Assembly: GCA_031316235.1 (NCBI GenBank)
Contig: JALDRA010000001.1
Location: 4,020,001 to 4,052,000 of the forward strand
Length of the DNA stretch: 32,000 nt
Origin: Candidatus Scalindua sp.
GTDB taxonomy: Bacteria; Planctomycetota; Brocadiia; Brocadiales; Scalinduaceae
Direction of reading: 5' to 3'
In this document: positions 6,757-31,543 of the stretch, piece by piece
Layout: each line of letters opens with the position of its first letter
How positions within the stretch are numbered: the stretch's first letter is position 1
Notes under the pieces: generated by a model
Database searches by the model: none
What the model was told of the DNA's origin: nothing
Seen by the model: only the letters and a program-made list of their open reading frames with translations
Made by a program: the position numbers and the translations under genes

Positions 6757-6796
6757 GATCTTTTATTATATTTTACAAAAAATCGGGAATGCTCCC

Positions 6797-11218: not shown

Positions 11219-11589
11219 TTTCTTCTCCTTTTTTGATTTCAATACCTATAAATATGCATCGTTACAAAGCCAACAACCTTCTTTTATACACAACCTCCCT
11301 TAATTACGTCTTCAAAACAGAGGATGGGGTTCATTATACAATGGAAACAATAGGTATAGAAGATACTATTGCTGAACTTGAGAACAGCATCATGATTGTT
11401 AAAATAGATCCAATAAAAGTTCTTTTCATATATATCCTGTTAAAAACAAAGCGGTAAAAGGGTCACCGTATTTAAGCATTAACAGACTTCCGAAAATTGT
11501 AATTCTTACTTGTGTCAAGGAAACCCAAAATTGAATTTTAAGAAGGCGATAGATCATGTAATGATTCGTGTTAATAGGCAGGTGCGGAT

Positions 11590-11974: not shown

Positions 11975-12406
11975 ATGTCAAATAGAAGAGAATTCATGAA
12001 AACAACAGCGGCAATTGCTGTCGGCGCAGTTGTTGGTAATGTATCGCCTGTAATGGCCGCTGGTTCCTGTTCGTTCCCTGCGGGGATTGTTTATAGCAGT
12101 GAGAAACCGGGGAAATGGTCTGGCAAGGAAAAAGGCCATGCACCTGTTGTTACTGTTGAAGGAAATAAAGTGACGGTAACCACGAAGCACGGTATGTCAG
12201 ACGCACATTATATTGTCAGACATACGGTCGTTTCTCAAGATGGAGAGGTTATAGGGGAAAAGACTTTTTCTTCATCAGATACAGAGGCAAAATCAGAATT
12301 TGAATTACCAGGAGGCGTCTCCAGATATGCGTGGGTGCGGTCCACACTGTATGCAACCAGTTTCTGCAACCTGCATGACCTCTGGGTTACACAGTTTAAG
12401 GCATAG
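11975..12406 (+). CDS. Tat-signal superoxide reductase-like protein (neelaredoxin/desulfoferrodoxin centre-II domain)
   Basis: Twin-arginine motif SNRREFMK followed by an h-region and AAG. Fe ligand pattern: KEKGHAP, HGMSDAH (H-x6-H spacing as in P. furiosus HPNTTEH), and CNLHDLW (compare CNIHGLW). Confidence 0.8.
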   Translation: MSNRREFMKTTAAIAVGAVVGNVSPVMAAGSCSFPAGIVYSSEKPGKWSGKEKGHAPVVTVEGNKVTVTTKHGMSDAHYIVRHTVVSQDGEVIGEKTFSSSDTEAKSEFELPGGVSRYAWVRSTLYATSFCNLHDLWVTQFKA

Positions 12407-12912: not shown

Positions 12913-13024
12913 TATACTAAAACCGATTTGGTTTTCGGTTTACCGGGAATCAAATCTTGGTTGCAGTTATACTCGCTCAATTTTATCTCGGATTTTATCC
13001 GAAAACCATTATGAGATGAGTATA
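12913..13024 (-). repeat. Copy E of the double-hairpin repeat (core 12915-13022, 108 bp), TA/TA flanks; overlaps the 3' end of the Fe-S protein gene
   Basis: Full-length copy. The last 4 codons and the TAA stop of ORF 13009-13788 are encoded by the repeat. Confidence 0.85.
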
Positions 13025-13788: not shown

Positions 13789-13887
13789 AAAATAACTTCC
13801 TGAATTTATTGGTAAATTGTGCTCATAAAAGAAAAATATTGTCTTTTATAGAAGCAAAACGGGTGCATTCCCAATTTATTGTAAAAT

Positions 13888-15306: not shown

Positions 15307-15329
15307 AAATACCCCCTTTCAAAAGACTT

Positions 15330-15995
15330 CTATCGCTCCCTGAATACATCTATGGCGAATAGTAACGCCTGACGTTCTAATACAGGCATGGATTTAAGTT
15401 TCGCTGTCCACCTTTTGGTCTTCCTCTTTATCCGTTCCCGCTCACGAAAGTTATTGCCAAGATAACGATAGTCGTGCAGTCCTACCGGAACACTATAGTT
15501 CATCCATAACCACTCCGTTGCTACGCCATGATGACAGACGGCCTGAAAAGAATGTGTCTGCCAGCTACGCAATGATTCTTTGTATAAGGTTGACTCGTAA
15601 CCGGATATCATCACCATGCAGGGAAGAGTTTTCAAAACTTCCAAAAGTTCGATGTGCTGCGCACGGCTATAGTCATATTTATATAGCCGTCCATACTTTT
15701 TCCTTGTCTCGCGAAGATATGGTGGGTCACAATATACCAGTTCTTTTCCTGTGAAATGATAATTATTCAGATAATTAATTGCGTCATCATGGACCAGTTC
15801 AAAACCTATTGGATGCATATTTGTCCACATCTCAACAACTTCCGAGTCAATTTCTATCCCAAAATTACTCCTGGCAGGTCGTTTGTTCCGTATAACAGCG
15901 CCACCACCCAAATGAGTCTCTATGTAGACATCATGGGGTGGCATAAGATTGATTAACTTTTGGAATACACCTCCTTTGCCGCCTGGATAATTCAT
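15330..15995 (-). CDS. D12-class (Dam-family) N6-adenine DNA methyltransferase, IS-borne (identical to 6056-6721)
   Basis: Identical 221-aa translation with the YPGGKG and DPPY motifs. Confidence 0.8.
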   Translation of the reverse strand: MNYPGGKGGVFQKLINLMPPHDVYIETHLGGGAVIRNKRPARSNFGIEIDSEVVEMWTNMHPIGFELVHDDAINYLNNYHFTGKELVYCDPPYLRETRKKYGRLYKYDYSRAQHIELLEVLKTLPCMVMISGYESTLYKESLRSWQTHSFQAVCHHGVATEWLWMNYSVPVGLHDYRYLGNNFRERERIKRKTKRWTAKLKSMPVLERQALLFAIDVFRER

Positions 15996-16001
15996 GGAAG
16001 A

Positions 16002-16030
16002 ATTATCGTTGAAAACAACGAGGAAGTCAA
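16002..16030 (-). promoter_or_regulatory. IS-internal promoter for the methyltransferase (copy 2)
   Basis: Same TTGACT-N17-GATAAT-N6-ATG arrangement as at 6728-6756. Confidence 0.5.
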
Positions 16031-16122
16031 GATCTTTTATTATATTTTACAAAAAATCGGGAATGCTCCCAGCAAAACAGCAGATGATTGAACAATCTGA
16101 ACGTGAGTACACCGTAAATAGT

Positions 16123-16154: not shown

Positions 16155-17618
16155 TTACGGCAGCAGCACGGATTTCCGGGCTAATTCAATGATCATGGAA
16201 GGAAATATACCGAGGTGAATGGTTCCCCAGATGGTGATAATGAGAGCAAGTATGATGTAGGGTGAAAGCGAAAGCGGTGCAAAATCACGCGCAGGCTTCT
16301 TCATGTACATGACAACCGTAACACGCAGGTAATAGTAAACTGAAATGACACTGTTAATTACTCCAATTACTGCGAGGATGACAAAGCCGGACTCAACAGC
16401 GGCACTGAAGATATAAAATTTCCCCATAAAACCTGCAAAAGGCGGTATTCCAGCAAGCGAAAACATGAATATGCTCATCACTATTGCCAGGACAGGATGC
16501 TTATACCCTAAACCGCTGTAATCATCAATCTGTAAATTCTCATCTCCTTTTTTACCGAGTATCATGATCACAGCAAATGCTCCCAGATTCATGAACACAT
16601 ACACCAGGAGATAAAAGAGTATGCTCGCTGTTCCTGAACTGCCTGCCGTTATGACAGCCATCAGGACGTACCCCGCGTGTGCGATGCTGGAGTATGCAAG
16701 CATCCTTTTTATGTTTGACTGTGTAATCGCTACAACATTTCCGATTGTCATGGTAAGGGCAGCCATCACCCACAGAATTACAGACCATTTCTGCTCCAGA
16801 CCGGGCAGTGAAACCAGGAACACCCTCAGGAAGACCGCAAAAGCAGCGGCTTTCGGTCCGGCAGACATAAATGCGGTAACCGAAGTTGGAGCACCCTCAT
16901 ATACATCAGGCACCCATTTGTGAAATGGTACTGCGGCCATCTTGAAACCAAAACCAATAATCAGCAGGGACGCACCCATAACAATCATTGGATTTGAAAA
17001 TGCGTGATTATCAGTAATAAAGGTACCGATTTCTTTAATATTTGTGGTGCCGGTAGCACCATAGAGGAGAGCAATTCCATAAAGAAGAAAACAGGTCGCA
17101 AAAGCACCAAGTAAAAAATATTTGAGAGAGGACTCATTCGAATCCATTCGTTCTCTCCTGAAACCCGCTAATACGTAAAGCGATATGGACATTATCTCAA
17201 GACCAAGAAAGATTGTAATCAAGTCTGCAGCACCTGCCATCAGCATCATTCCCATTGTGGCAAAGAGTAACAATGTATAGTACTCGCCGTAATTAACCCC
17301 TTCCTGTTCCAGATAGTAAACGGACATGAGAATTACGATTGCCGTACTGATAAGAAAGATGTAATTGAAAAAGATCGAAAAGTTATCGACCACAAACGTG
17401 TCACTGAACGAATATACTGGCGAATATACGGTTGATCCTGACTGGGCAAATGTTATCAGGCCCGTAATCAGTACCGCAAGAAAGCTGAGATATCCGAGCG
17501 TTTCCTTGGGCAGCTTCTTGAAGAATACGTCTGTTATGAGCACTACCATGGCTGCAATGGTTATGAGAATGATGGGTGCAATGCTTTTTAAATCAAATGG
17601 CGGGATTGTTATTTCCAT
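16155..17618 (-). CDS. nuoN: NADH:quinone oxidoreductase subunit N
   Basis: 487-aa polytopic antiporter-like subunit, last gene of the operon. Overlaps nuoM by 10 nt. Confidence 0.9.
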
Positions 17619-19162
17619 AACGTGTCTCCCTTCAGTACAAGTTTCTTCTTCTCTTCTTCCACCCTGATGGCGGTTTTTTTGTATTTTTCATCCACCTGGG
17701 ACAAGAGATGAGTTACCGACACATCAAGCCTTGAAATTATGGGTTTTGGATAGATGCCAATCCAGAAAATAAGAATAATGATCGGCAGGATGATAGCCCA
17801 TTCCCGTATGTTTACGTCTGCCATATTTTGATTCTTTTTGTTTGAAAGCTTATTGAACATAACCCTTTGAAACATCCAGAGCATGTAACATGCCGAAAAG
17901 ATCACGCCTGTTGTCGCAAGGGCAGCATAAAGAACATTGGTCTTGAATGTGCCCAGCAGGATGAGAAATTCGCCGACAAAACCATTTAAACCCGGTAATC
18001 CGATAGAGGAGAATGTAACAATCATAAAAAAGACGGTGAAAACCGGAACCTGCTTTGCAAGTCCGCCAAAGTCTGAAATCATCCTGGTGTGTCTTCTCTC
18101 ATAAAGCATCCCGACGAGTAAGAATAACGCACCCGTACTCAACCCGTGATTCACCATCTGGAGGATACTCCCTTCCAGACCCTGGATGTTGAAAACGAAT
18201 ATACCAAGCATGACAAACCCAAGATGGCTTACACTTGAGTAGGCAATAAGCTTTTTCAGATCTTGCTGTACCATTGCCACAAGCGCACCGTATATGATTC
18301 CAATAATGGCCAGCCAGGCGATAATAGGTACGAATTGATGGCTTGCATAGGGGAACAGGGGCAGACTGAAGCGTACAAAACCATACGTCCCCATCTTCAA
18401 CAGGACCCCTGCCAATATAACACTCCCCGCAGTTGGCGCCTCTACATGCGCGTCAGGCAGCCATGTATGAAATGGAAACATGGGTACCTTGATGGCGAAG
18501 GCAAAAAAGAATGCCAGAAAAAGCCAGAATTGAATCCCCATTGGTATGTCAAGTCTATACAGCTGCAACAGATCAAACGTATGTTCTCCGGTTGCATTAT
18601 AGTTCAGAGTATGAATTGCAAGAATAGCGAGCAGCATCAGGACACTGCCGGCCATCGTATAGATAAAAAACTTTACCGTTGCATAGATCCTCCTTGGCCC
18701 CCCCCATATTCCGATTATGAGATACATCGGTATGAGCATCAGTTCCCAGAACACATAAAAAAGGAACAGGTCCAGTGAGATGAATACACCCAGCATTCCG
18801 GTTGTCAGGACAAGCATGGAGACCATGTACTCCTTTACTCTCTCCTTTACCGTCCACGAAGCCAGGATGGCCAGGCAGGTAAGAAAGCTTGTCAGGAGAA
18901 ACAGGAACAGACTGATGCCGTCAATGCCCACATGATAACTGATGCCAAACTCCCTGATCCAGGGAACCATTTCTCTGAATTGAAATTCATGCGTCTTCAG
19001 GTTGAAATTGAAGAATAAGGGAAGTGATATGACAAACGAACCGATTGCAGTAATCAGTGCAATCTGCTTGATCTTTTCCTCTTTCTTCTTATTGATAAAG
19101 AGTATCCACAAAGCGCCCACAAGCGGCAGAAAAGTAGCTACGGTCAGTATTGGAAAGTTCAT
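17609..19162 (-). CDS. nuoM: NADH:quinone oxidoreductase subunit M
   Basis: 517-aa antiporter-like subunit with [19 protein letters not shown], the ND4 signature. Confidence 0.9.
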
Positions 19163-19219
19163 TTTATAAACTCGTTTCTTCGAAAATCCATTATTTCATA
19201 TATGATTTAAACCACTTAT

Positions 19220-21166
19220 CTATAATAAAAATAAGGCAAAAATTATGATAATAATACCGCCCAGCAGCATTGAAAGTGCATAATTACGTACAAAACCGGT
19301 TTGGAAAAGCCGTAAGGCTTCACCATTCAACTTGACCAGCCTGGCAACTCCATTCACAAAGCCATCGATAATCCTGACATCTATCCATCTCCAGAGGAAA
19401 AATGAACTCTTTATTGCAGGATTCACAACCGCAGCATCATAGATCTCGTCAACATAATATTTATTCAGGAGAATCTTATAGATCAGCTTGAACCGGCCTG
19501 CTATCTGTCCCGGCAAGCCGGGCTTTTTGACATACATTACATATGATAAGGCAATTCCCACGATTGCAATGCCCGTTGAAAGGCCCATCATTGAGAACAT
19601 GAGATTATGTGAAATGTGATGTGTTTCTCCACCATCAACCACTCCTGAGTGTCCAACACCTCCCACTACGGGAGCCAGAAAACTGTTTATGGCACTCGCA
19701 GCAGGAAAACCGAGAAAACCTCCCACAGCCGAAAGCAGTGCAAGGACCATCAACGGAAGAAGCATGTTCATGGGAGATTCGTGGACGTGCTCTTCCACAT
19801 GTTTGTCCATCCTTGATTTTCCATGAAATGTCATAAAGAGAAGCCTGAACATATAGAAAGACGTCAGGAGCGCCGCAAATGCCCCCAATCCCCAGAAAAC
19901 CATATTTCCCCTGGTATAGGCTTCAAGTAAAATCTCATCCTTACTGAAAAAACCGGCAAAAGGAGGTATTCCCGCTATTGCAAGTGTTCCGATGAGAAAC
20001 GTTTTATACGTTATGGGAAGATGTTTTCTGAGTCCGCCCATCTTTCGCATGTCCTGCTCACCACCCAGGGCATGGATAACACTACCGGAACCAAGGAAAA
20101 GCAATGCCTTGAAAAATGCATGAGTGATCAGATGGAAAATACCCGTAATAAATCCCCCGACACCGCACGCCAGGAACATATACCCTATTTGACTTACCGT
20201 GGAATATGCCAGTACCCTCTTGATATCATTCTGAGCAAGACCGATAGTTGCAGCAAACAGGGCTGTTGCTCCGCCAATTACGGCTACCACGGTGAGTGAG
20301 AAAGGTGCCATGACAAACAGTACATTACACCTGACAACCATGTAAACGCCGGCTGTCACCATTGTTGCAGCGTGTATGAGGGCGCTGACCGGAGTAGGGC
20401 CCTCCATTGCATCCGGAAGCCAGGTATAGAGCGGTATCTGTGCTGATTTCCCCGTTGCCCCCAGGAACAATAAAAGTGTAATAGCAGTTGCTACCACGCT
20501 TCCCGTTGTCAAGTGTTCCGGTGCTGAATCGAAGACATCGGTGAAGTCTATCGTATGGAAAGTTACGAAAATCAGTAACATGGCCAGGATAAAACCGAAA
20601 TCTCCAATACGGTTGACGATAAAAGCCTTTTTTCCTGCACTCGATGCGGATTTCCTTTCAAACCAGTAACCAATCAGCAGATATGAACACAATCCGACTC
20701 CTTCCCAGCCGATGAACATGAGAAGAAAATTATTGGCCAGAACCAGCAGCAGCATGGAAAATGTGAACAGATTGAGGTAGGTGAAATATCGATAAAATCC
20801 TTCATCGCCATGCATATACCCTATCGAATAAACATGTATCAAAAACCCCACACCGGTAACTACCAGTATCATGACGGTTGAGAGCGGGTCAACTTGTAAC
20901 CCGGCAACAGCCGTAAATGTACCGGAGCCTATCCACGTGAAAAATTCTTTTTCAAACAGGCGCTGTTCGGGTGGAAGTTTCACCAGGTCTATGAATACAA
21001 GGATTGAGACAAAAAATGCCAGTCCAATTGCAGTACACCCGATATAGCCTATGACTGATGTGCTGAGTTTTTTACCACACAACCCGTTTACAATTGCCCC
21101 GGCAAGCGGGAGCAGCAGCACAAAACCGATTAAATTCAAAAATGATTCCCCAGGTATACTTGGCAT
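19220..21166 (-). CDS. nuoL: NADH:quinone oxidoreductase subunit L
   Basis: 648 aa with WLPDAMEGPTPVSALIHAATMV, the ND5 signature, and a long C-terminal helix region. Confidence 0.9.
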   Translation of the reverse strand: MPSIPGESFLNLIGFVLLLPLAGAIVNGLCGKKLSTSVIGYIGCTAIGLAFFVSILVFIDLVKLPPEQRLFEKEFFTWIGSGTFTAVAGLQVDPLSTVMILVVTGVGFLIHVYSIGYMHGDEGFYRYFTYLNLFTFSMLLLVLANNFLLMFIGWEGVGLCSYLLIGYWFERKSASSAGKKAFIVNRIGDFGFILAMLLIFVTFHTIDFTDVFDSAPEHLTTGSVVATAITLLLFLGATGKSAQIPLYTWLPDAMEGPTPVSALIHAATMVTAGVYMVVRCNVLFVMAPFSLTVVAVIGGATALFAATIGLAQNDIKRVLAYSTVSQIGYMFLACGVGGFITGIFHLITHAFFKALLFLGSGSVIHALGGEQDMRKMGGLRKHLPITYKTFLIGTLAIAGIPPFAGFFSKDEILLEAYTRGNMVFWGLGAFAALLTSFYMFRLLFMTFHGKSRMDKHVEEHVHESPMNMLLPLMVLALLSAVGGFLGFPAASAINSFLAPVVGGVGHSGVVDGGETHHISHNLMFSMMGLSTGIAIVGIALSYVMYVKKPGLPGQIAGRFKLIYKILLNKYYVDEIYDAAVVNPAIKSSFFLWRWIDVRIIDGFVNGVARLVKLNGEALRLFQTGFVRNYALSMLLGGIIIIIFALFLL

Positions 21167-21176
21167 TTTTATCCTC

Positions 21177-21479
21177 TTACCACTTCATTATGTTTATATC
21201 ATCAACGTTTACAGTTGATTTGTTCTTAAAGAGAGCAACTACGATTGCAAGGCCTACGGCTGCTTCTGCTGCAGCAACTGTCATGATGAAAAAAACAAAT
21301 ATCTGTCCATCCATCGAATCGTGCTGTCGAGAGAATGTTACAAAAGCCAGATTCACCGCATTCAACATCAACTCTATGGACATCAAAATGACAAGTGCAT
21401 TCCTTCTGATGAGAACACCGATTGCACCCATTGTAAAAAGAGCTCCTGACAAAACCAGATACCATGTTAAAGGGATCAC
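21177..21479 (-). CDS. nuoK: NADH:quinone oxidoreductase subunit K
   Basis: 100 aa, 3 TM helices, GTG start, ND4L-like ([11 protein letters not shown]). Confidence 0.9.
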
Positions 21480-21483
21480 GTCC

Positions 21484-22008
21484 TTATTCCTTCAGTCCTT
21501 TTTTTGTTAAAATTATAGCGCCGACAATGGCAGCAAACAGTAAGATTGATGCTATCTCAAAGGGTAAAATATAGTCTGTAAAAAGCAATTTTCCGACAAG
21601 CTGGGTGTCCCCTATTTCACTGATCTTCTCAGGGGTATATTCACCCTTTGTACCCTGAATGACTGATCTCACCATTACAATACCAACAACAGCAAATAAA
21701 ACCAGCCCGATAAACAGAGCAGTTGCTTTTTGAAATATCAGCCTGTCTTTCCCCATCTCTTCCTCAATTTTATCTACATTAAGCAGCATGATTACAAAAA
21801 CAAAAAGTACCATCACGGCACCTGCGTAGACCATTACCTGTACAGCTGCAATAAATTGAGCATGCAACAGGACGTAGAGAACCGCAAGAGAAACCATCGT
21901 CTGGATGAGAAAAATCGCACTATAAATGGGATTCTTCTGAAAGACAACACCACCTGCGCAGATGATGATGATCGTACCCATTATAATAAACAGCAAGCCC
22001 TCTAGCAT
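21484..22008 (-). CDS. nuoJ: NADH:quinone oxidoreductase subunit J
   Basis: 174 aa, ND6-like, in the expected operon position. Confidence 0.85.
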
Positions 22009-22059
22009 AATATCCGATCTCCGTGATAACGGTAATTAGTGGTTGCGTTCAAACACTAA

Positions 22060-22479
22060 TTATTTCTGCTTCTTTACAGGAGCAAGCAATCTCTCCTTAT
22101 CATAAATAAAACTGTCTCCCTCCGCGGAGGCGAGTTCGTATTCCTGTTTTAAAAAAATAGCCTCTTCCGGGCACACTTCCTGGCAATAACCGCAGAAAAT
22201 ACAGCGGAGCATGTTGATTTCATACACCTCCGCATATCGCACTCCCTGGTCATTTTCAGCACCTTCAAGACGGATACATTCAGATGGACAGACGGTAGCG
22301 CAGAGTCCGCACGCAACACACTTCTCCTTGCCATTCTGGTCCCTTTGTAACTGGTGCAGACCTCTGAAGCGCGGATAAGGGGTCCATTTCTCTTCTGGAT
22401 ACCGCATCGTTACAACACTGGAGGGGCTGAGAAAATTCTTTAAGGTAAGTGCTAACCCCTGCAATAATGGTTTTATCAT
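22060..22479 (-). CDS. nuoI: NADH:quinone oxidoreductase subunit I (2x[4Fe-4S])
   Basis: CVACGLCATVCP and CIFCGYCQEVCP. The track ORF begins at TTG 22506. ATG 22479 (MIKPLLQG...) has GAGGA 7 nt upstream, so I prefer it. Confidence 0.9.
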   Translation of the reverse strand: MIKPLLQGLALTLKNFLSPSSVVTMRYPEEKWTPYPRFRGLHQLQRDQNGKEKCVACGLCATVCPSECIRLEGAENDQGVRYAEVYEINMLRCIFCGYCQEVCPEEAIFLKQEYELASAEGDSFIYDKERLLAPVKKQK

Positions 22480-22532
22480 TAAACTTTCCTCGTACGCATT
22501 GAACAAAACCGGTAATGCTTCTCTGGTTCAAA

Positions 22533-23525
22533 CTACCCTGTCAGGACCACAACAATTCCTGTTATCAGGATATTTACTATGGCGACCGGGAGCAGAATCT
22601 TCCAACCGAAATTCATCAGCTGATCGTACCGGAACCTGGGAAAAGTGGATCGTATCCACACGAAAAAGAAAATACACAAAAACAACTTGATCAGGAACCA
22701 GACTACAGGAGGCAGAAACGGCCCCCTCCAGCCACCAAAGAAGAAGGTAACGGCAACAGCTGATACAGTTAACATGTTGGCATATTCAGCCATAAAGAAC
22801 ATTGAGAACTTCATACTGCTGTATTCAGTGTGGTATCCTGCAACCAGCTCAGTCTCCGCTTCAGGTAAATCAAAGGGACACCTGTTCACTTCCGCAACGG
22901 CACTGACAGTATACACTATAAACCCGATCGGCTGAAATATCACAAACCACCATTTTGACTGGGCATTCACAATATCAACAAGACTCAGCGATTGACTCAT
23001 CATGAGAACCCCAATCAGCGCCAGGCCTAATGAGAGTTCATAGCTGATCATCTGGGCTGAAGACCGCAGTCCCCCCAGTAAAGAATATTTGTTGCTTGAT
23101 GACCATCCAGCCAGAATAATGCCGTAAACTCCCACCGAAGTGACAGCGAGGATAAAGAGAATACCGATGTTTACGTCCGTAATAACCATATCGATGCTGT
23201 ACCCTGATATGGTTATTTTGTTCCCGAAAGGAATAACCGCAAACGACATAAGTGCCGGGACTATCGCGATGACAGGTGCTAACACAAAGATTATTTTGTT
23301 TGCCCTGGAAGGAATAATGTCTTCCTTGAACATCAATTTAAGCCCGTCTGCGATAGGCTGAAGCAACCCCTGCCACCCTACTCTCATCGGGCCGAGTCTC
23401 ACCTGCATGCGTGCCATAACTTTCCGCTCAATCCATATAAGGTAAGCTATCGTTATGAGGAGTAACCCGAAAACGATACTTATCTTAATGCTTGCAACCA
23501 CAGTAAATAAGATGGCATCCATCAT
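22533..23525 (-). CDS. nuoH: NADH:quinone oxidoreductase subunit H
   Basis: 330 aa, ND1-like (ERKVMARMQVRLGP, AEYANM). Confidence 0.9.
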   Translation of the reverse strand: MMDAILFTVVASIKISIVFGLLLITIAYLIWIERKVMARMQVRLGPMRVGWQGLLQPIADGLKLMFKEDIIPSRANKIIFVLAPVIAIVPALMSFAVIPFGNKITISGYSIDMVITDVNIGILFILAVTSVGVYGIILAGWSSSNKYSLLGGLRSSAQMISYELSLGLALIGVLMMSQSLSLVDIVNAQSKWWFVIFQPIGFIVYTVSAVAEVNRCPFDLPEAETELVAGYHTEYSSMKFSMFFMAEYANMLTVSAVAVTFFFGGWRGPFLPPVVWFLIKLFLCIFFFVWIRSTFPRFRYDQLMNFGWKILLPVAIVNILITGIVVVLTG

Positions 23526-23550
23526 ACAATCAATTTCCTTACACTGTACT

Positions 23551-23817
23551 TTATAGTTTGTTCATTCTCTGCCCGCAGCATTCTAAAATGCCGGTAGTCT
23601 CATTAATAACATTTATCTTCTGTCCGCATATCTTACACACAAAAGAAGCGCCCTGAGCAGGTTCGTGATGAACCGATGTCCAGGTTTCCATCATCCCGCC
23701 TGCCTCAACCCGTTTCATCTCCTGCCCGCAGCATACAAGCACCCCGAAACCTTCATCTACAACCTCAATCTTCTGTCTGCACACCTCGCAAAAATATATC
23801 TGCCCTTTTTTACCCAT
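23551..23817 (-). CDS. Tandem desulforedoxin-domain protein (two Fe(Cys)4 Dx modules in one chain)
   Basis: 88 aa. C10-x2-C13-x15-C29C30 and C61-x2-C64-x15-C80C81, each followed by GQ.M. This is the same spacing as D. gigas desulforedoxin (YKCELCGQ...LVCCGEDM). Lies 10 nt after nuoG and 25 nt before nuoH. Confidence 0.75.
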   Translation of the reverse strand: MGKKGQIYFCEVCRQKIEVVDEGFGVLVCCGQEMKRVEAGGMMETWTSVHHEPAQGASFVCKICGQKINVINETTGILECCGQRMNKL

Positions 23818-23827
23818 AGTATACCCT

Positions 23828-26455
23828 TTACGCTTTTGAAAGTTTTACTTTTGTATAGACGTTATCACGCAATGCGTTTACGTGTATCCACTCATAATCC
23901 TCCGGAACAAAGATCATTCCCGCCGGCAATCTGTCAGAAATCTTTGTCTTCATTTTCATCGAATCCTGAACCGACACAATCGATACCTCATCACCGCTTC
24001 TGATGTTTAATTTCCGGGCGTCACTCCTGTTGATCTCAGCGACACATTCGGGAGAAACGGAAACAAGAGATTGCGAATTCCGGGAGAAACTCCCCAGGTG
24101 ATTGAGACTGGGTCCCGTCAGCAGCACAAATGGGTAGTCTCTCTTCTTCTTCACAACCGATTTCGGCTTGAAAACCTCAAAATGGTATCTCTTTGCCTTT
24201 AACCGGTGAGCAGTAACCCAGTTAAATCCCGATCTTTTCAGACGTTCATAATCCATACCCGAGAAAATAGGAACCGTGTTTACTATTTCATCGATGATCT
24301 CTTTCAGAGATTCGTAGAATAGGGTTGCACCCATCTTTTGCGCTATGTCACAGAAAATCTGCCAATTCTGTCTCGCATTTCCCACAGGGGGAATGGCCTT
24401 GTTGAGACGTTGTACTTCCATTGCCATATTAGTAAAAGTTCCCTCTTTTTCAGCATATGTTGTCGAGGGAAGGACGACGTCTGCGCATTGTGCCGTCTCT
24501 GTTAAAAACGTATCCTGGACAACGACAAATTCCAGATTGTTGAATGCCTCTTTCACAGCTTTTCCATTCGGAAAATTTACGATTGGATTCTCCTCCACGA
24601 CAAACATCGCCTTCAGCCTGCCCTTTAATGCAAGATCAATAATACTGGTTCCATCTCCCCTGGCGATGGAATCAGAGAGTTTCACATCCCACGATTTTTC
24701 AAACCTTTTTCTTGCTGACCGGTCATCAATAGCAAGGTAACCCGGGAAAAATCCGGGAACAACTCCCATATCATTCACACCCTGGGAATTATTGTTACTC
24801 CGTGAAAAAATGAGGGAGATCTTGCCCAACTCCGCTCTCGGAGTGGTAGACTTATTAATCAGTGCACAGAGATTCATCAGGGCCCGTATCGTTTCATGGC
24901 CGGAAGGGTCTTCCTCAATATCTTTCCCGCAGATGATATAGGAATTACCGGGTTTTGCCAGTAAGGAGGCAGCCGTTGTTATGGCTTCTACCGACACTCC
25001 GGTCACCTGTGAAGACTTCTTTATCGATGTTGTTTTTAAAGAGGATTTCAGCCCTGTCAGGCCATCAGTCAATTTTTCAATCCTTTTAAGATCTACAAGT
25101 TTTCTATCGATAATCTCCTTTATCAGAGCATTAATCAGTATCGTCTGCGTACCCAGCCCATACTGTAATCGTATATCATTCTGTGCGATGCTGTCATAAC
25201 GTATCTTTCTCATGTTAGCAATGATAAGACTGGCTTTATTCAACCGTATCGCCTTTCGAGCGAGGGTTCCCACCACAGGATGAGCTTCTGAAACATCTGC
25301 CCCGACAAAAAAAAGCGTATCCGCCTTTTCCATCTCTTTCAATGAAGTTGTTGATGTGAAACCGTGCACGATAGATTTGTGAATGAGCGCATTAAGTAAA
25401 GGCACCTTGATGTTGGAGAGGTTGTCGATGTTATTAGTTCCCAGAACATTTCTACAGAACTTCTGAAAGACATAACTATCTTCATTTGTACATTTTTCTG
25501 AACCAATCCCACCAATCGATTCGCCACCATGATCGTTTTTAATTTCTTTGAATCTCCCGGCGACATAGCTGATGGCTTCATCCCACGGCACAGGGCATAA
25601 AACACCCTCTTTTCGTATTAAAGGGGTCATGATCCTCTTGTCGGAATGAATAAAATCGTGTCCGAACCGGCCCTTCAGGCAGAGATTTCCTTCGTTGTTT
25701 CCCAATGCATCATTTGATGTAATCCTGAGAACTGTGCTGTTTTTTGTGTTAATCTCAATACTACACCCGACAGCACAGTAAGGGCAGATAGACGTAGTCT
25801 TCTCCAGATCCCAGGGTCTTGCCCTGAATTTCAATGTCCTGTCCTGCCACGAACCAGTTGGACACACTGAGAGGCATCCGCCACAGAAACTACAGTCGAG
25901 GGGTTTATCAAAGGCAGTACCAATAATGGTACTGATCCCTCTGTTCTGAAAGTCTATTGCACCTACACCTTCAACATCTTTACACATCTTTACACATCTT
26001 CCGCATAAGATGCATCGGTTTGCATTAAACTCAAGAAGAGGATTGTCGCGTCTCATCGGTTTGTTCATTCTCACTGTCTTGAATCTTCCTGTGGAGAGCT
26101 TGAGATCATGGGTAATATCCTGTAACCCGCACTCTCCGGATTTATCGCATGTCGGGCAATCGAGAGGATGTTGTGCGAGCAGATATTCCATAACAGATTT
26201 CGTATACCTGACAATTTCAGGGGTTTTTGTTTTGACTTCCATCCCCTCTGATACAGGCTGAGCACAGGAAAATCTGTGCCTGGTCCGGCCACGTTCTGTC
26301 ACTTCAACCATGCAGAGCCTGCACCCTCCAAACTGTGCCAGCTTTGGATGATAGCACAAACCGGGAATATAGATACCCTTCTGTTTTGCAGCAAGAAAAA
26401 TATCAGTACCTCTCGGAACCGTTACGCTTTGTTTGTCTATTGTGAGAGTAATCAT
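23828..26455 (-). CDS. nuoG: NADH:quinone oxidoreductase subunit G (long, molybdopterin-oxidoreductase-fold C-terminal part)
   Basis: 875 aa. Has an N-terminal 2Fe-2S site (CYHP...CRLC), HPLDCPTCDKSGEC, CILCGRCVKMC, CSFCGGCLSVCP and CPYCAVGC, followed by an MopB-like domain and a C-terminal beta-barrel. Confidence 0.9.
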   Translation of the reverse strand: MITLTIDKQSVTVPRGTDIFLAAKQKGIYIPGLCYHPKLAQFGGCRLCMVEVTERGRTRHRFSCAQPVSEGMEVKTKTPEIVRYTKSVMEYLLAQHPLDCPTCDKSGECGLQDITHDLKLSTGRFKTVRMNKPMRRDNPLLEFNANRCILCGRCVKMCKDVEGVGAIDFQNRGISTIIGTAFDKPLDCSFCGGCLSVCPTGSWQDRTLKFRARPWDLEKTTSICPYCAVGCSIEINTKNSTVLRITSNDALGNNEGNLCLKGRFGHDFIHSDKRIMTPLIRKEGVLCPVPWDEAISYVAGRFKEIKNDHGGESIGGIGSEKCTNEDSYVFQKFCRNVLGTNNIDNLSNIKVPLLNALIHKSIVHGFTSTTSLKEMEKADTLFFVGADVSEAHPVVGTLARKAIRLNKASLIIANMRKIRYDSIAQNDIRLQYGLGTQTILINALIKEIIDRKLVDLKRIEKLTDGLTGLKSSLKTTSIKKSSQVTGVSVEAITTAASLLAKPGNSYIICGKDIEEDPSGHETIRALMNLCALINKSTTPRAELGKISLIFSRSNNNSQGVNDMGVVPGFFPGYLAIDDRSARKRFEKSWDVKLSDSIARGDGTSIIDLALKGRLKAMFVVEENPIVNFPNGKAVKEAFNNLEFVVVQDTFLTETAQCADVVLPSTTYAEKEGTFTNMAMEVQRLNKAIPPVGNARQNWQIFCDIAQKMGATLFYESLKEIIDEIVNTVPIFSGMDYERLKRSGFNWVTAHRLKAKRYHFEVFKPKSVVKKKRDYPFVLLTGPSLNHLGSFSRNSQSLVSVSPECVAEINRSDARKLNIRSGDEVSIVSVQDSMKMKTKISDRLPAGMIFVPEDYEWIHVNALRDNVYTKVKLSKA

Positions 26456-26457
26456 TT

Positions 26458-28305
26458 TTACTTAATTGCCATAAAATTGCATTTTTCATAACATAAGTTA
26501 CACTGGATACACTTGTCTTTGTGTATAAAGACATCTTCCTGGCGTGACCCCGTAATCGCCTGGACTGGACAATTTTTAACACAGAGCATGCATTTTGTAC
26601 ATTTGTCAGTAACAATCTCATACCGGTGGAGTGCAACACACGTTGCTGTTGGACACACCTTGTCTCTGATGTGTGCCATGTATTCGTCACGGAAATACCT
26701 GATAGTAGATTTCACCGGATTGGGGGCAGACTGTCCCAATCCGCAAAGCGACATCGTTTTCACCTCATCACACATCTGATCGAGTACTTCCATGTCTTTT
26801 TCTTCTCCCTCTCCGCTGGTAATCCGATTAAGAATATCCAGCATGAGGGTAGTGCCAATCCTGCAGGGCGGACATTTGCCACACGATTCTTTTGCGCAGA
26901 AATCAAGGAAAAATCTGGCCATATCAACCATGCACGTGGTTTCATCAACGACAACAAAACTCCCGGAACCCATCATGGCCCCCGCTTCTTTCAGTGATTC
27001 AAAATCAACAGGCGAATCCAGCAGAGATTCAGGAATACATCCTCCCGATGGTCCGCCGATCTGTACCGCTTTGAATCTTTTTCTCTTTTGTATTCCACCC
27101 CCCATACTGAATACAATATCCCGGATAGAAGTACCCATAGGTACTTCCACGAGACCCGCCTGTTTTATCTTACCTGTGAGAGAGAATATTTTCGTACCTT
27201 TACTGTTTTCTGTACCGATATTGGAAAACCAGGAAGCACCATTATTCAAGATAAGGGGAACATTAGCGAAGGTTTCCACATTATTCAGGCAGGTTGGTTT
27301 ATCCCATAACCCGGCTTCCACAGATTGGGGGGGCCTGGTTCTCGGCATTCCGCGTTTCCCCTCGATAGAAAACTGCAGCGCTGTAGACTCACCACACACA
27401 AAGGCTCCAGCTCCCTCCTTAACGGCAATGTGAAGACTGTAACCGCTTTTCAAGATATTTTTTCCCAGAAAATTCCTCTTTTCCGCCTGCTCTATCGTAT
27501 GCCTCAATCTTTTAACTGCCAGGGGATACTCAGCACGCACATAGAGGTATCCGCCAGTCGCTTTTATCGCATAGCCGGCTATAATCATTCCCTCCAATAC
27601 GGCATGCGGATCTCCTTCTAACAGGCTTCTATCCATAAATGCACCGGGATCTCCCTCATCGGCATTACAGAGTATGTACTTTTCATCAGAATCATATTTG
27701 GCACACGATCCCCATTTCCAGCCGGCAGAAAAGCCTCCCCCTCCCCTGCCTCTCAACCCCGACTTGCTCACCTCATTAATAACCTGCTCTGGCGTCATGG
27801 TTTTTATCGCTTTTTTAAGCGCCTGGTAACCGCCTCTCGCAATATATTCGTCAATACTGTCAGGTTCGATTATTCCGCAGTTCCTGGTTACGTACTTCAA
27901 TTGGCTCTTATTCACTTCAAGCTCATCAAAAAATGGCAGATCCTTATACGGAGCAACATCTTCGCCATCATGATACATCTGTGACAAGGCGTACTTCTTT
28001 ACCACTTTTCCATCTCTCACATGCTCTTCCAGGATCTGGGGGACTATACCTGCATCTACATTCTTATAAGTCACCCTTGTCCTCCCGGGAAGAATCACAT
28101 CTACCAGGACCTCCTGTGTGCACAATCCAATACACCCTGTAGGGACGATCTCCACGGAAAGCTTCTGTCTCTTCAGCTCTTCGTTTATGCTCCTTAAGAC
28201 ACCTTTCGCACCTGCGCCTAATCCACAGGTGCCCATGCCGATCATAATCTTTGTCCCTTTTGGCGCTCTCTTGTTTCGAACGCCTGAAGCTGTTTTCTTT
28301 GCCAT
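26458..28305 (-). CDS. nuoF: NADH:quinone oxidoreductase subunit F, extended HydB/HndC-like form (N-terminal thioredoxin-like domain, C-terminal 2x[4Fe-4S] ferredoxin domain)
   Basis: 615 aa. Core motifs are GRGGGGFSAGWKW and ESCGKCPPCR. The N-terminal ~110 aa reads GTCGLGAGA...TGCIGLC. The C-terminus has CTKCMLCVKNCP and CIQCNLCYEKCN. Confidence 0.9.
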   Translation of the reverse strand: MAKKTASGVRNKRAPKGTKIMIGMGTCGLGAGAKGVLRSINEELKRQKLSVEIVPTGCIGLCTQEVLVDVILPGRTRVTYKNVDAGIVPQILEEHVRDGKVVKKYALSQMYHDGEDVAPYKDLPFFDELEVNKSQLKYVTRNCGIIEPDSIDEYIARGGYQALKKAIKTMTPEQVINEVSKSGLRGRGGGGFSAGWKWGSCAKYDSDEKYILCNADEGDPGAFMDRSLLEGDPHAVLEGMIIAGYAIKATGGYLYVRAEYPLAVKRLRHTIEQAEKRNFLGKNILKSGYSLHIAVKEGAGAFVCGESTALQFSIEGKRGMPRTRPPQSVEAGLWDKPTCLNNVETFANVPLILNNGASWFSNIGTENSKGTKIFSLTGKIKQAGLVEVPMGTSIRDIVFSMGGGIQKRKRFKAVQIGGPSGGCIPESLLDSPVDFESLKEAGAMMGSGSFVVVDETTCMVDMARFFLDFCAKESCGKCPPCRIGTTLMLDILNRITSGEGEEKDMEVLDQMCDEVKTMSLCGLGQSAPNPVKSTIRYFRDEYMAHIRDKVCPTATCVALHRYEIVTDKCTKCMLCVKNCPVQAITGSRQEDVFIHKDKCIQCNLCYEKCNFMAIK

Positions 28306-28450
28306 AGTAATCTACTTAACCAGTAATTTCCATTTTCTCTCTATCCGAACACGCCCTTTCCCTCGAACGAATCTTTCCTGGCCGACACCTGTCCGGACAG
28401 ATCGACTTACCTTCTCCAGGGACGATAAGGGTGGAGTAGAAGTCCCTCCG

Positions 28451-28945
28451 CTATTTTCCTTCGTGTATTACATCTTTCACATTATCAGGGGCAAGTTTGC
28501 CATGCACATCTTCATCTATCATTGCAACGGGAGCCAGCGAGCATGCACCAAGACATGCCACCTCCTCGAGAGTAAACAATCTGTCCCTGGTGGTTGAACC
28601 AACAGGAACATCTAACACCTCGCTGAATTTTTCTACAATCTTGGGAGCCCCTTTTACGTGACATGCCGTTCCACAGCAGACCTTTATAATATGTACTCCC
28701 CGTGGTTTCAAATGAAATTGTGCATAGAATGTTGCTACACCGACGATTTCACTTGCACTCATATTCATCCGTTCTGCGACAAGATGAATAATCTGCTCCC
28801 GAAGGTATCCATAGGCCCCCTGCATCTTCTGCAAGACAGGGATTAATGCCCCACGCACGCCTTCATATTCGTCAAGAATCGCTTCTGCTTCGGAAAAATC
28901 TATTTCTTCATTCAGGTCGTTTTTTTGTATGTTTGATGCATTCAT
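28451..28945 (-). CDS. nuoE: NADH:quinone oxidoreductase subunit E (2Fe-2S)
   Basis: 164 aa with CCGTACH...CLGACSLAP. Confidence 0.9.
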   Translation of the reverse strand: MNASNIQKNDLNEEIDFSEAEAILDEYEGVRGALIPVLQKMQGAYGYLREQIIHLVAERMNMSASEIVGVATFYAQFHLKPRGVHIIKVCCGTACHVKGAPKIVEKFSEVLDVPVGSTTRDRLFTLEEVACLGACSLAPVAMIDEDVHGKLAPDNVKDVIHEGK

Positions 28946-28969
28946 AATCTGTGGTTTATTTCAATGAAT

Positions 28970-30145
28970 TTAACGATCAATTTCTCCCAGGACAATATCC
29001 AGGCTCCCTACTACGGCCACAACGTCAGCCAGCATGCGGCCAACCACCATTTTTTCCAATGCTTCTAAATTAACAAACGAGGGTGGCCTGATTTTAACCC
29101 TGTAGGGCTTCTTTGTCCCATCACTCACCAGGTAATATCCAAGCTCACCCTTGGGAGCTTCAATGCTGAAATATACCTCGCCAGCAGGTGGACAGATCCC
29201 TTCGGTAACCAGCTTGAAATGGTGTATCAATGATTCCATGCTGCTTTTCAGCTCCTCTTTCGCCGGAGGAGCAACATCCGGTACATCTGCCATATACCTA
29301 TCATTGGGAAGATTGTCCATAGCCTGTCGAATAATCTCATTGCTCTGACGCATCTCCTCAACTCGAACCGTATATCTATCGTAGACATCGCCATTCTTCC
29401 CAACCGGAACAATAAAGTCAAATTCATCATATGAAGAATAGGGTTCTGCCTTTCGTACGTCCCACTTTACTCCTGACCCTCTTATGCTCGGGCCGCTCAA
29501 CCCGTAATTAATAGCATCTTCTGCTGAGATGACTCCGACGTCTTTCGTCCTCATTAACCAGATCTTGTTTTTTGTCAAAAGAGTTTCATATTCCTTTAAT
29601 TTCGACGGAAAGATATTGATGAAGTCCCGGGTCTTCTTTATGAAATCATCAGGTAAATCTCTGGCGACACCTCCTATCCTGAAGTATGAGAGGTTCATCC
29701 GGGCACCTGCAACCATTTCAAAGAGATCGTTAATCGTTTCCCTCTCTCTGAAACAGTAAAAAAAAGCAGTCATCGCGCCGATATCAAGGGCATGGGTTGC
29801 AAACCATAAAAGATGAGATGATATTCTTGTGAGTTCACATAATAAGACTCTGATATATTGGGCTCTTTTCGGTATTTTCAGATCCAGAAGTTTCTCAACT
29901 GCAAGGACATAACCCAGATTATTTGATAAAGGAGCCAGGTAATCAAGACGATCCGTAAGAGTGATAAATTGATGGTACGTCTTATGTTCTGCAAGCTTCT
30001 CCACACCCCGATGAAGATACCCGATGTGCGGCGTAACCCTGACGACAGTCTCACCATCAAGATCGAGAACCAGCCTCAAGACACCGTGGGTGCTTGGATG
30101 CTGGGGACCCATATTTATCGTCATTACCTGTTGCGTCTCTGTCAT
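28970..30145 (-). CDS. nuoD: NADH:quinone oxidoreductase subunit D
   Basis: 391 aa with NMGPQHPSTHGVLRL and HRGVEKL. ATGA overlap with nuoC. Confidence 0.9.
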   Translation of the reverse strand: MTETQQVMTINMGPQHPSTHGVLRLVLDLDGETVVRVTPHIGYLHRGVEKLAEHKTYHQFITLTDRLDYLAPLSNNLGYVLAVEKLLDLKIPKRAQYIRVLLCELTRISSHLLWFATHALDIGAMTAFFYCFRERETINDLFEMVAGARMNLSYFRIGGVARDLPDDFIKKTRDFINIFPSKLKEYETLLTKNKIWLMRTKDVGVISAEDAINYGLSGPSIRGSGVKWDVRKAEPYSSYDEFDFIVPVGKNGDVYDRYTVRVEEMRQSNEIIRQAMDNLPNDRYMADVPDVAPPAKEELKSSMESLIHHFKLVTEGICPPAGEVYFSIEAPKGELGYYLVSDGTKKPYRVKIRPPSFVNLEALEKMVVGRMLADVVAVVGSLDIVLGEIDR

Positions 30146-30654
30146 CGTTTTACTTTTCTGTAAACATCTCTCAGCGAATTGGGTTGTCTGCCTTTCAGCG
30201 GATAATCTTTTCTCAAAGGATGTCCCTCAAAGCCGTCAGGTGTTAAGATTCTCACTAAATTAGGATGTCCCTCAAAGGTAATTCCAAACATGTCGTAGGC
30301 TTCTCTTTCATGCCAGTCTGCTGTCTTCCAGATACCGGTAACAGATCCGATAGTTGGTTTTAAAGCGGGTATTTTCACTTTCAGTCTCACTCTGTGATTT
30401 CTTTTAATTGAATAGAGGTGGTAAACCACTTCGAAGGAATTACTCTTCTCCAGAGACGTCTTATCCACACCACACAGATCGGTAAGAAAATCAAAAGCGA
30501 GTTCGCCATCGTCACGCAGGAACTGCAGAACCCGCACAATGGAGTCCCTGTCTATGCAGATGGTCAGTTCATCTCTGAAAATCTTTACAGTGAGAACAGC
30601 TCCAGGAAATCTGGACCTTAACCTGTTTTCTATAAGAGAAATGTCTTCTGACAT
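30142..30654 (-). CDS. nuoC: NADH:quinone oxidoreductase subunit C
   Basis: 30-kDa subunit motifs (ADWHEREAYDMFGI.F.GHP). The track start 30681 is a TTG, and ATG 30654 (MSEDISLI...) is more likely. The stop is TGA. Confidence 0.85.
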   Translation of the reverse strand: MSEDISLIENRLRSRFPGAVLTVKIFRDELTICIDRDSIVRVLQFLRDDGELAFDFLTDLCGVDKTSLEKSNSFEVVYHLYSIKRNHRVRLKVKIPALKPTIGSVTGIWKTADWHEREAYDMFGITFEGHPNLVRILTPDGFEGHPLRKDYPLKGRQPNSLRDVYRKVKR

Positions 30655-30710
30655 TGCAAGTCCTGATTTAAAAAAGTACAAGTAAAGTTAAGCCGGCAAA
30701 AATATCAAAA

Positions 30711-31196
30711 TCATTGAGGACCGTCATCCAGAACGGATTCCGTATCAATTCTTTTCTGTAATTCCATAATGGCATGGATCAACGCTTCGGGCCGCGGCGG
30801 GCATCCCGGCAGAAAAATATCAACAGGAATGATTTCATCTACCCCCTGCACCGTACTGTATGTATCAAATATTCCGCCCGATGTGGCACAGGCTCCCATT
30901 GCAATCACCCACTTCGGTTCCGGCATCTGATCATAAATCTTTTTCGTTACCGCCGCCATCTTATGCGTTACGGTACCCGCAACAATCATCAGATCAGATT
31001 GGCGGGGTGAAAAGCGGAAGACTTCCGCACCGAATCTCGCAAGGTCGTAGCGCGGCGCAACAACCGCCATCATCTCAATTGCACAGCATGCCAGGCCAAA
31101 AGGCATCGGCCAGATAGAGTTCTTCCTGGACCAATTTACCACCTTATTAATCGTGGTCGTGAGTATTGTATCACCAAAAACAGTCTCTAGTCCCAT
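30711..31196 (-). CDS. nuoB: NADH:quinone oxidoreductase subunit B
   Basis: 161 aa with GLACCAIEM...GACA.SGG...PGCPP (N2 cluster). The stop is TGA. Confidence 0.9.
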
Positions 31197-31543
31197 TCGA
31201 AACCACCCCTTTTCCAGATATAGGCATAGCAGACCAGCAGGATCATCATGAATACTGCCATCTCGATCAGGCCGAAAATCTTCAAGGACTTGAAAACGAC
31301 AGCCCAGGGATATAAGAAAACGACCTCAATATCAAAGATTACAAACATTATGGCAACCAGAAAAAATTTAATAGAAAATCTCTCTCTTGAACTCCCCACA
31401 GGTTCAACTCCGCATTCATAGGGAGAGAGCTTTTCTTTAGAAGGTCTCTGCCGCCCGATGATGGCTGAAATGCCGACATTGGAAAAGGCAAAAACCACTA
31501 CTACTATCAGAACTATGAGGATAGGAATATAACCGATTAACAT
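31187..31543 (-). CDS. nuoA: NADH:quinone oxidoreductase subunit A
   Basis: 118 aa, 3 TM helices, with YECG..P.G and [11 protein letters not shown] (ND3 signature). Confidence 0.9.

Follow-up and report, generated by a model that had tools for sequence, protein, structure and literature searches.

A tandem desulforedoxin gene at the nuoG-nuoH junction of the anammox complex I operon

The stretch of DNA analysed here, referred to as the window, comprises 32,000 nucleotides of a contig from Candidatus Scalindua sp. (JALDRA010000001.1, positions 4,020,001 to 4,052,000) and carries all fourteen nuo genes of complex I on one strand, in a gene order that matches Kuenenia and 44 other genomes. Between nuoG and nuoH lies one additional gene, which encodes a small protein with two desulforedoxin (Dx) domains in tandem and is here named di-Dx; coordinates are window positions throughout. 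An initial annotation had described this 88-aa open reading frame (ORF) with two desulforedoxin signatures, located 10 nt downstream of nuoG and 25 nt upstream of nuoH on the same strand, and both the motifs and the placement were found to be exact (the strand is minus).

The di-Dx protein (MGKKGQIYFCEVCRQKIEVVDEGFGVLVCCGQEMKRVEAGGMMETWTSVHHEPAQGASFVCKICGQKINVINETTGILECCGQRMNKL) contains the motifs C10-x2-C13-x15-C29C30-G-Q-E-M and C61-x2-C64-x15-C80C81-G-Q-R-M, with 26 residues separating M34 from C61. A search with the Pfam family PF06397 (Desulfoferrod_N), proposed earlier as a check, matched the protein in two stretches with a score of 69.3 bits (cut-off 23; E 2e-19), and the NCBIfam model TIGR00319 scored 59.1 bits (cut-off 36). 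The two-domain match to Desulfoferrod_N is far above chance level. Residues 4-35 of domain 1 aligned with residues 3-34 of D. gigas desulforedoxin (1CFW/1DXG) in a PDB sequence search, with about 53% identity by eye count, and direct comparison of the two di-Dx domains gave about 44% identity. In an AlphaFold2 model based on 32 homologues (mean pLDDT 80, pTM 0.67), each half contained three short strands and the linker contained a helix at residues 42-49, where the pLDDT was lower (63-70). The top PDB match of this model in Foldseek was 1dxg_A, with a root-mean-square deviation of 0.4 A, a TM score of 0.98 and 44% identity over 36 columns, the matching half being unspecified. The model thus predicts a Dx fold for di-Dx, and the sequence suggests that the protein would bind iron in Fe(Cys)4 sites.

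D. gigas desulforedoxin (1DXG/1CFW) is a 36-aa homodimer with one Fe(Cys)4 centre per chain, and the same C-x2-C-x15-CC pattern is present in each half of di-Dx. In contrast to desulforedoxin proper, di-Dx is not a single chain of about 36 aa but has two non-identical domains within one chain of 88 aa, joined by a conserved 20-aa linker with a predicted helix, and it is confined to anammox bacteria. The physiological role of desulforedoxin itself is poorly defined. PF06397 is shared also with the N-terminal domain of desulfoferrodoxin, a 2Fe superoxide reductase (SOR; 1DFX, 1VZG, 2JI1), where it forms the electron-entry centre of an enzyme that detoxifies reactive oxygen species (ROS). Unlike desulfoferrodoxin, di-Dx is a protein in which Pfam found no SOR domain (PF01880), and the SOR-like gene of the window is a separate gene bearing a twin-arginine (TAT) signal. 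Identity as a 2Fe-SOR or desulfoferrodoxin was rejected, given the missing PF01880 domain and a score of 45.5 bits against a cut-off of 146.9 for TIGR00320.

The nuoG stop codon occupies positions 23828-23830 and the di-Dx ATG stands at 23817; the di-Dx stop codon occupies 23551-23553 and the nuoH ATG stands at 23525. A Shine-Dalgarno-like AAGGG overlaps the nuoG stop codon (coding strand ...AAA GCG TAA AGGGTATACT ATG...). The choice of start codon is supported by the N-terminus M(A/G)KKGQxYFCE, which is common to all di-Dx orthologues. No promoter-like or terminator-like sites were seen in either of the spacers that flank di-Dx, the counts in the scanned region being no higher than the shuffled expectation, and an internal promoter or terminator around the ORF was rejected because the signals were not above chance. 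The spacing and the Shine-Dalgarno-like motifs fit co-transcription within the complex I operon, as had been expected, and would also fit translational coupling with the nuo genes.

Table 1. Features of the window that bear on di-Dx and its surroundings (window positions).
Feature	Position	Strand	Description
di-Dx gene	23551..23817	-	ATG start, 88 aa, two desulforedoxin domains, stop codon included; ORF list, Pfam PF06397 x2
Dx domain 1	23710..23817	-	residues 1-36; Cys10, 13, 29, 30; aligns to 1CFW/1DXG
Conserved linker	23650..23709	-	residues 37-56, GMMETWTSVHHEPAQG; short helix predicted at 42-49
Dx domain 2 and stop codon	23551..23649	-	residues 57-88; Cys61, 64, 80, 81; second PF06397 stretch
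nuoG/di-Dx spacer	23818..23827	-	10 nt, AGGGTATACT on coding strand; sequence read directly
di-Dx/nuoH spacer	23526..23550	-	25 nt; AAGGAAA ahead of nuoH ATG
Whole nuo operon	16155..31543	-	nuoA-B-C-D-E-F-G, di-Dx, nuoH-I-J-K-L-M-N; Pfam on every ORF
nuoE	28451..28945	-	164 aa; PF01257, E 2e-49
nuoF	26458..28305	-	615 aa, HydB / electron-bifurcating type; Complex1_51K, NADH_4Fe-4S, Fer4 (residues 563-611)
nuoG-like gene	23828..26455	-	875 aa; PF13510, PF10588, PF22117, PF00384, PF01568
nuoH	22533..23525	-	330 aa; PF00146, E 1e-132
TAT-signal neelaredoxin-like protein	11975..12406	+	143 aa, PF01880; twin-arginine N-terminus MSNRREFMK

The order nuoG, di-Dx, nuoH was found at 45 loci in 44 species-representative genomes, which include all anammox genera. 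The gap between nuoG and di-Dx had a median of 6 nt over 67 loci, that between di-Dx and nuoH was mostly 3-25 nt, and in Kuenenia the annotated di-Dx and nuoH genes overlap by 8 nt. The position is retained despite foreign DNA inserted on either side: the nuoG/di-Dx gap of Kuenenia holds a HicA/PHD toxin-antitoxin pair of about 1.2 kb, and inserts of 0.3-1.1 kb lie between di-Dx and nuoH at four loci (L012, L014, L031 and L036). Downstream inserts of this size were found in several Brocadiaceae. The junction is a recurrent site of insertion (L001 6875-7794, L005 5218-5841, L014 5077-6178), and in the metagenome-assembled genome (MAG) of a lake organism a DUF559 endonuclease-like gene has been inserted there.

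The taxonomic range of the family was examined in three sets of sequences. From 5.8 billion proteins, a word-indexed search recovered 63 di-Dx homologues, all of 88-107 aa or fragments, and the named hosts among them were all anammox bacteria (Kuenenia, Jettenia, Loosdrechtia, Scalindua and unclassified Planctomycetota MAGs). Database labels for these homologues read 'desulfoferrodoxin FeS4 iron-binding domain-containing protein' or hypothetical. Apparent single-domain homologues (P0061-P0063) were set aside as artefacts of a miscalled start or of cut or poor-quality contigs; behind the miscalled one, locus L005 carries a full di-Dx gene with a GTG start. When 1.84 billion cluster representatives were scanned exhaustively with HMMER, the family formed essentially one 50%-identity cluster, and the remaining matches had E values above 1e-9, except for two very large proteins (2,008 and 3,212 aa) that matched in many stretches. 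Among 185,579 species-representative genomes, 53 di-Dx loci were detected, all in Brocadiales, together with one weak single-Dx match in a Chloroflexi MAG. Within the sequences searched, the di-Dx family is restricted to anammox bacteria (Brocadiales). The nearest relatives of the window are Scalinduaceae MAGs of the SCAELEC01 group, in which NuoF is 89-92% and di-Dx 83-85% identical.

Among the weaker HMMER matches were tandem Dx proteins (71-95 aa), four-fold Dx proteins (about 195 aa) and one Dx-Dx-SOR fusion. All of these are less than 45% identical to di-Dx and do not have the anammox linker. Covalently duplicated Dx, as the initial annotation described it for this ORF, is therefore not unique, and the existence of these other proteins indicates that the duplication arose several times. 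None of the non-anammox tandem-Dx genes was seen in a nuo operon, on contigs too short to inform on their context. As judged from these comparisons, what is particular to anammox bacteria is the di-Dx family and its genomic setting rather than Dx duplication as such. The four-fold proteins come from metagenomes (P0068, P0070 and P0087), as does the Dx-Dx-SOR fusion (P0073). A 622-nt contig with no anammox affiliation shown (L085, 72-606) carries two adjacent tandem-Dx genes, of 89 and 81 aa.

Over 59 distinct coding sequences the mean dN/dS of di-Dx was 0.10 (domain 1, 0.08; linker, 0.16; domain 2, 0.12), and these ratios indicate that the gene is under strong purifying selection, linker included. 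Four linker residues (W46, T47, P53 and G56) were invariant in 32 sequences, and given this invariance and the low dN/dS the linker is not a passive tether. Its predicted helix carries a conserved MMxTWT motif. In domain 2 the invariant residues were G76, L78, E79, C80, C81, G82 and M85. The second pair of cysteine ligands was invariant; in the alignment, some rows of which are truncated, conservation of the other ligands was 90% or more. In Kuenenia the ortholog (KsCSTR_45590 = KSMBR1_2477 = kustc0833; about 10.4 kDa) is annotated 'hypothetical protein' and is transcribed, with expression values in two growth conditions of 206.6 and 172.9, as compared with 130.4 and 79.2 for nuoH and 226.8 and 118.5 for nuoG (PMC7438415 supplement). 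Kuenenia has two nuo-type clusters; the one in question is kustc0822-0841, several genes of which were up under ammonium limitation (PMC7438415). Taken together, di-Dx is a real gene for a cytoplasmic protein with two predicted desulforedoxin-type centres joined by a conserved linker.

The subunits encoded next to di-Dx are themselves unusual, as had been suspected from the window: NuoF is of the HydB type and NuoG is FdsA-like without the catalytic Cys-His. NuoF carries a 2Fe-2S-like extension at its N-terminus and a 2x[4Fe-4S] ferredoxin domain at its C-terminus, and its best PDB chains were 9bov_B (756 bits), NiFe-Hyd subunit B (729), NfnB (727) and HydB (689/676), these labels being the depositors' names; the canonical chains Thermus Nqo1 and E. 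coli NuoF scored 409 and 377 bits. Full-length NuoF is kept at all 44 nuo-linked di-Dx loci. The architecture is shared with HydB of the HydABC, NfnABC and Bfu modules (7P5H, 7Q4V, 8A6T, 7T2R, 9N5U), enzymes that use a soluble one-electron carrier, whereas here the module stands within a complete 14-subunit complex I operon. A complete 14-gene complex I with a bifurcation-type N-module merits study for its own sake. NuoG aligned over its full length to the alpha subunit of NAD-dependent formate dehydrogenase, FdsA (best PDB matches 9wxb_B/6tg9_A), and retains the molybdopterin-binding domains according to Pfam; it scored under the cut-off with both the Fdh-alpha and the NuoG models of NCBIfam. 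The FdsA segment ARVCHSPT, which we take to bear the molybdenum-ligand Cys and the catalytic His, is aligned to NIKVPLLN in NuoG. Given that the Cys-His segment is replaced, a catalytic formate dehydrogenase site is unlikely and NuoG was rejected as an active formate dehydrogenase.

Not all lineages keep the gene in the operon. A metagenome scan with Scalindua NuoH yielded three Scalindua-like loci (L088-L090) in which nuoG is followed directly by nuoH. There nuoG ends ...GYTNVKISKTK*, and the non-coding nuoG-nuoH spacer is 25-105 nt long (24-106 nt over L088-L090 and L166-L178). No Dx motif or di-Dx remnant was seen in the empty junctions of L088-L090. At about 75 non-anammox nuoH loci from the same scan, most of them with a nuoG-like match just upstream, no Dx motif was seen either. 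The NuoH proteins of the empty junctions are 93-100% identical to proteins named Candidatus Scalindua rubra, S. japonica or Scalindua sp., and in two abundant variants nuoG adjoins nuoH in at least 13 assemblies, beside which more than 30 similar ones exist. Altogether the junction is empty in more than 15 independent assemblies. In another widespread marine lineage (NuoH P0147), TCA is changed to TAA at linker Ser48 (TWTS motif) in 10/10 independent assemblies that stem from different samples, and the same allele is present in one species-representative MAG, the reading frame of domain 2 being still intact. This allele may be a recent pseudogene, or the gene may have been split into a 47-aa single Dx protein and an untranslated remainder. 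The loci with the allele are L062-L071 (1203-1478) and L052 (6766-7041). The survey of nuoG-nuoH neighbourhoods proposed at the outset thus gave a divided answer, with di-Dx in 44 genomes of every genus, an empty junction in classical Scalindua and a stop codon in another lineage. Absence of the ORF from close relatives with an otherwise identical operon had been named in advance as evidence against a function linked to complex I, and one clade, classical marine Scalindua, has just this arrangement.

In eight marine Scalindua species genomes and matching metagenome contigs, di-Dx was found outside the nuo operon, in a ROS-defence cluster with the order TAT-neelaredoxin-like, NROR-like, di-Dx, rubredoxin-Dx (Rd-Dx) fusion, rubrerythrin, rubrerythrin, Dx. 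The NROR-like flavoprotein (457 aa, Pyr_redox_2 and Rubredoxin_C) ends 6 nt ahead of di-Dx, and downstream of the cluster lie genes for a Cu-ATPase and a cbb3 oxidase. The relocated copies form a single clade nested within the Scalinduaceae branch and have a linker that is 2-3 residues shorter; no nuoG remnant was seen upstream of them. In both contexts the upstream neighbour of di-Dx is an NADH-oxidising flavoenzyme, 2-10 nt off in most loci: linkage to NROR and rubrerythrin occurs in the 8 marine Scalindua genomes, whereas in the other 44 genomes and the window di-Dx adjoins NuoEFG. None of the species-representative genomes scanned had both a nuo-linked and a ROS-linked copy. Given this, and given that the classical Scalindua junction is empty, di-Dx appears to be single-copy and relocatable, and we infer that the classical Scalindua clade moved it from the nuo operon to the ROS cluster. 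Some empty-junction contigs apparently come from Saanich Inlet (by sample name, HAWL17), and one MAG with the ROS cluster is named SI037, apparently of the same origin; this co-occurrence is circumstantial. The cluster as a whole contains three different Dx-domain proteins alongside two rubrerythrins, among them a 77-aa rubredoxin-Dx fusion (L003 6345-6578) and a 41-aa single Dx (L003 7550-7675).

The window itself contains a protein that is 65% identical to the first gene of this cluster. It is the neelaredoxin-like protein listed in Table 1, whose TAT-SOR-like gene lies 11 kb from di-Dx and marks a candidate partner pathway. An exported SOR-like protein is unusual.

We tentatively favour the reading, at a probability that we put slightly short of even, that di-Dx is an electron carrier akin to rubredoxin but with two centres, and that it is not a core subunit of complex I. 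It would receive electrons from a flavoprotein module that oxidises NADH. In most anammox bacteria this module would be the HydB-type NuoEFG, probably co-translated with di-Dx; in classical marine Scalindua it would be the NROR-like flavoprotein, whose gene ends 6 nt ahead of di-Dx. From di-Dx the electrons would go on to enzymes that scavenge oxygen and peroxide in the cytoplasm, such as rubrerythrin, so that di-Dx would act as a detachable side outlet, or 'safety valve', of the NADH-oxidising module. Both the direction of electron flow and the partners are what we infer. The carrier model is the simplest one to cover both contexts, given that an NADH-oxidising flavoenzyme stands upstream in both and scavenging iron proteins stand downstream in the marine one. 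Of the roles suggested in the initial annotation, electron exit or an oxidative-stress valve gains support from the marine ROS context, while an obligatory assembly factor or subunit has become unlikely.

A soluble redox partner could plausibly dock at the C-terminal 2x[4Fe-4S] domain of NuoF, by analogy with the bifurcating HydABC enzymes. The potentials of Dx and of desulfoferrodoxin (Dfx) centre I are about 0 mV (D. gigas, D. desulfuricans). Reduction of such a centre by NADH would therefore be strongly downhill, and the centre would be unsuited to a bifurcating module, whose partner has to be of low potential. The pathway from NROR through rubredoxin to rubrerythrin, SOR or FDP is known from Clostridium, Pyrococcus and Desulfovibrio, and in the eight Scalindua genomes di-Dx, with predicted rubredoxin-type Fe(Cys)4 sites, occupies the position of the small carrier. 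di-Dx differs from that pathway in that the carrier is a two-centre Dx protein rather than rubredoxin and the presumed reductase is mostly the N-module of complex I.

A survey of ROS defence in anammox bacteria, in which di-Dx goes unmentioned, reported neelaredoxin, rubrerythrin and flavodiiron proteins in all genera; NROR was not found in Kuenenia, and Scalindua alone had an Fdp-rubredoxin operon (PMC10156729). With no NROR in Kuenenia and Fdp-rubredoxin limited to Scalindua, the electron donor to the ROS enzymes is left open for several genera. No account of di-Dx, its architecture, its operon position or its ROS context was found in the literature on anammox complex I (its structure in Kuenenia included), the Kuenenia locus tags and tandem desulforedoxin; the domain is already known, and the operon setting and ROS context of the tandem family are what we did not find discussed.

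Several observations weigh against the carrier reading. The constant placement between nuoG and nuoH (44 genomes, all genera; often gaps of 3-6 nt or an overlap with nuoH) fits a stoichiometric subunit equally. The neelaredoxin-like proteins of the cluster and the window carry TAT signals and thus probably reside in another compartment than di-Dx. The relocated marine copies, with their linker shortened by 2-3 residues, could have altered function. The link between empty junctions and the ROS cluster was drawn from mutual exclusion among MAGs rather than from a single closed genome. Finally, Dx sites can also bind Zn.

A more far-reaching form of the carrier reading, which we regard as doubtful, is that anammox complex I is branched: the ferredoxin domain of NuoF would dock the operon-encoded di-Dx, and the enzyme would double as an NADH:di-Dx oxidoreductase that powers ROS defence; alternatively, a confurcating or bifurcating complex I would use di-Dx as its third substrate. 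If true, no earlier complex I would have had a soluble redox partner encoded in its own operon, and the arrangement would explain how genera without NROR and rubredoxin feed rubrerythrin and SOR.

Among the alternatives, the one that survives best is that di-Dx is an accessory subunit, residing permanently on the peripheral arm of complex I, where it would stabilise the junction of the N- and Q-modules or add one or two redox centres, comparable to the Cys-rich Zn subunit NDUFS6/NUMM in complex I of mitochondria and alphaproteobacteria. We consider it unlikely on balance, while noting that much of the genomic evidence agrees with it: di-Dx lies inside the operon in 44 genomes, which cover every anammox genus, the gaps are tight (median 6 nt after nuoG and usually 3-25 nt to nuoH, or an overlap), the place is kept even with foreign genes inserted on either side, conservation of the linker equals that of the domains and hints at a role in docking, and the transcript levels resemble those of the nuo genes (PMC7438415 supplement). 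Against this stand the orthologous operon of classical Scalindua, which contains neither di-Dx nor a remnant of it, the TAA in the linker throughout 10/10 assemblies of a widespread marine lineage, and the eight genomes with di-Dx in a ROS-defence cluster instead. Absence of the gene from the operon of one clade, together with fixation of a nonsense allele in another, speaks against a structural subunit or assembly factor that the enzyme cannot do without. In addition, a PDB sequence search with di-Dx found only Dx and Dfx, and no such subunit has been described in solved complex I structures. The known accessory subunits, Thermus Nqo15/Nqo16 and the Zn-binding NDUFS6/NUMM, likewise represent a small extra protein with a complex I gene set. 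NDUFS6 is a Cys-rich metal-binding protein. di-Dx, however, has no relation to any of these in sequence or fold, and it is missing from the operon in one clade.

It is also conceivable, though improbable in our view, that di-Dx is the dedicated third substrate of a bifurcating or confurcating complex I, in which the HydB-type NuoF would couple NADH, quinone and a soluble one-electron carrier; di-Dx would then belong to energy metabolism and not to stress defence. The scores of NuoF, almost double against HydB, NfnB and Bfu chains as compared with canonical NuoF, the retention of both extra domains and of full-length NuoF at all 44 nuo-linked loci, and a carrier gene within the operon would all agree with such an enzyme. 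A potential of about 0 mV is nevertheless far too positive for the low-potential partner of known Bfu enzymes, the marine context is plainly one of ROS defence, and di-Dx is dispensable from the operon. NuoG differs from the HydABC, NfnABC and Bfu systems, having no formate dehydrogenase catalytic Cys-His, and we know of no Dx protein that serves as a Bfu partner.

The least supported of the functional alternatives, and a very improbable one, casts di-Dx as a chaperone for Fe or Zn, or as an assembly factor, which would help to load or repair Fe-S clusters in the N-module. In its favour, the protein is small and rich in Cys and is expressed together with Fe-S subunits, and complex I Fe-S clusters are described as known targets of ROS (PMC10175503). 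The eight strictly conserved cysteines, arranged as two closed Fe(Cys)4 sites, are unlike a labile donor site, and the marine neighbours of di-Dx are redox enzymes rather than Isc or Suf genes. Dx domains, moreover, are known to us solely as redox centres. That di-Dx is a chance or decaying ORF without function, for which one could cite the nonsense codon in one lineage, has next to no probability and is refuted by conservation, in view of the Pfam E of 2e-19, the order-wide conservation with a dN/dS of 0.1 and the transcription of the gene.

Much of the nitrogen lost from the oceans is lost through anammox bacteria, which also serve to treat wastewater, and both activities are limited by their oxygen sensitivity. 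If di-Dx is an electron donor reduced by the HydB-type N-module, then respiration, NADH balance and oxygen tolerance would be connected through a new kind of peripheral complex I partner. In a conservative reading, di-Dx is a clade-specific and easily expressed 10-kDa protein, predicted to hold two irons, for which natural 'knock-out' and 'relocation' lineages are available for comparison. In either case it is a concrete lead tying an unusual complex I to the oxygen tolerance of anammox bacteria.

Some further features of the window were noted. A 529-aa ORF at 9653-11242 (-) had no Pfam match. A direct repeat of 2,214 nt is present at 4583-6796 and 13857-16070 in copies that are 99.95% identical, the second copy lying about 85 nt downstream of nuoN. 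Each copy contains a 472-aa ORF of the UPF0236 family, which we take to be transposase-related, and a 221-aa ORF with a partial match to D12 adenine-methyltransferase; the repeat is probably a mobile element. Adjoining its second copy is a gene for a DUF3786 protein (13009-13788, minus strand) with a putative Fe-S motif at the N-terminus.

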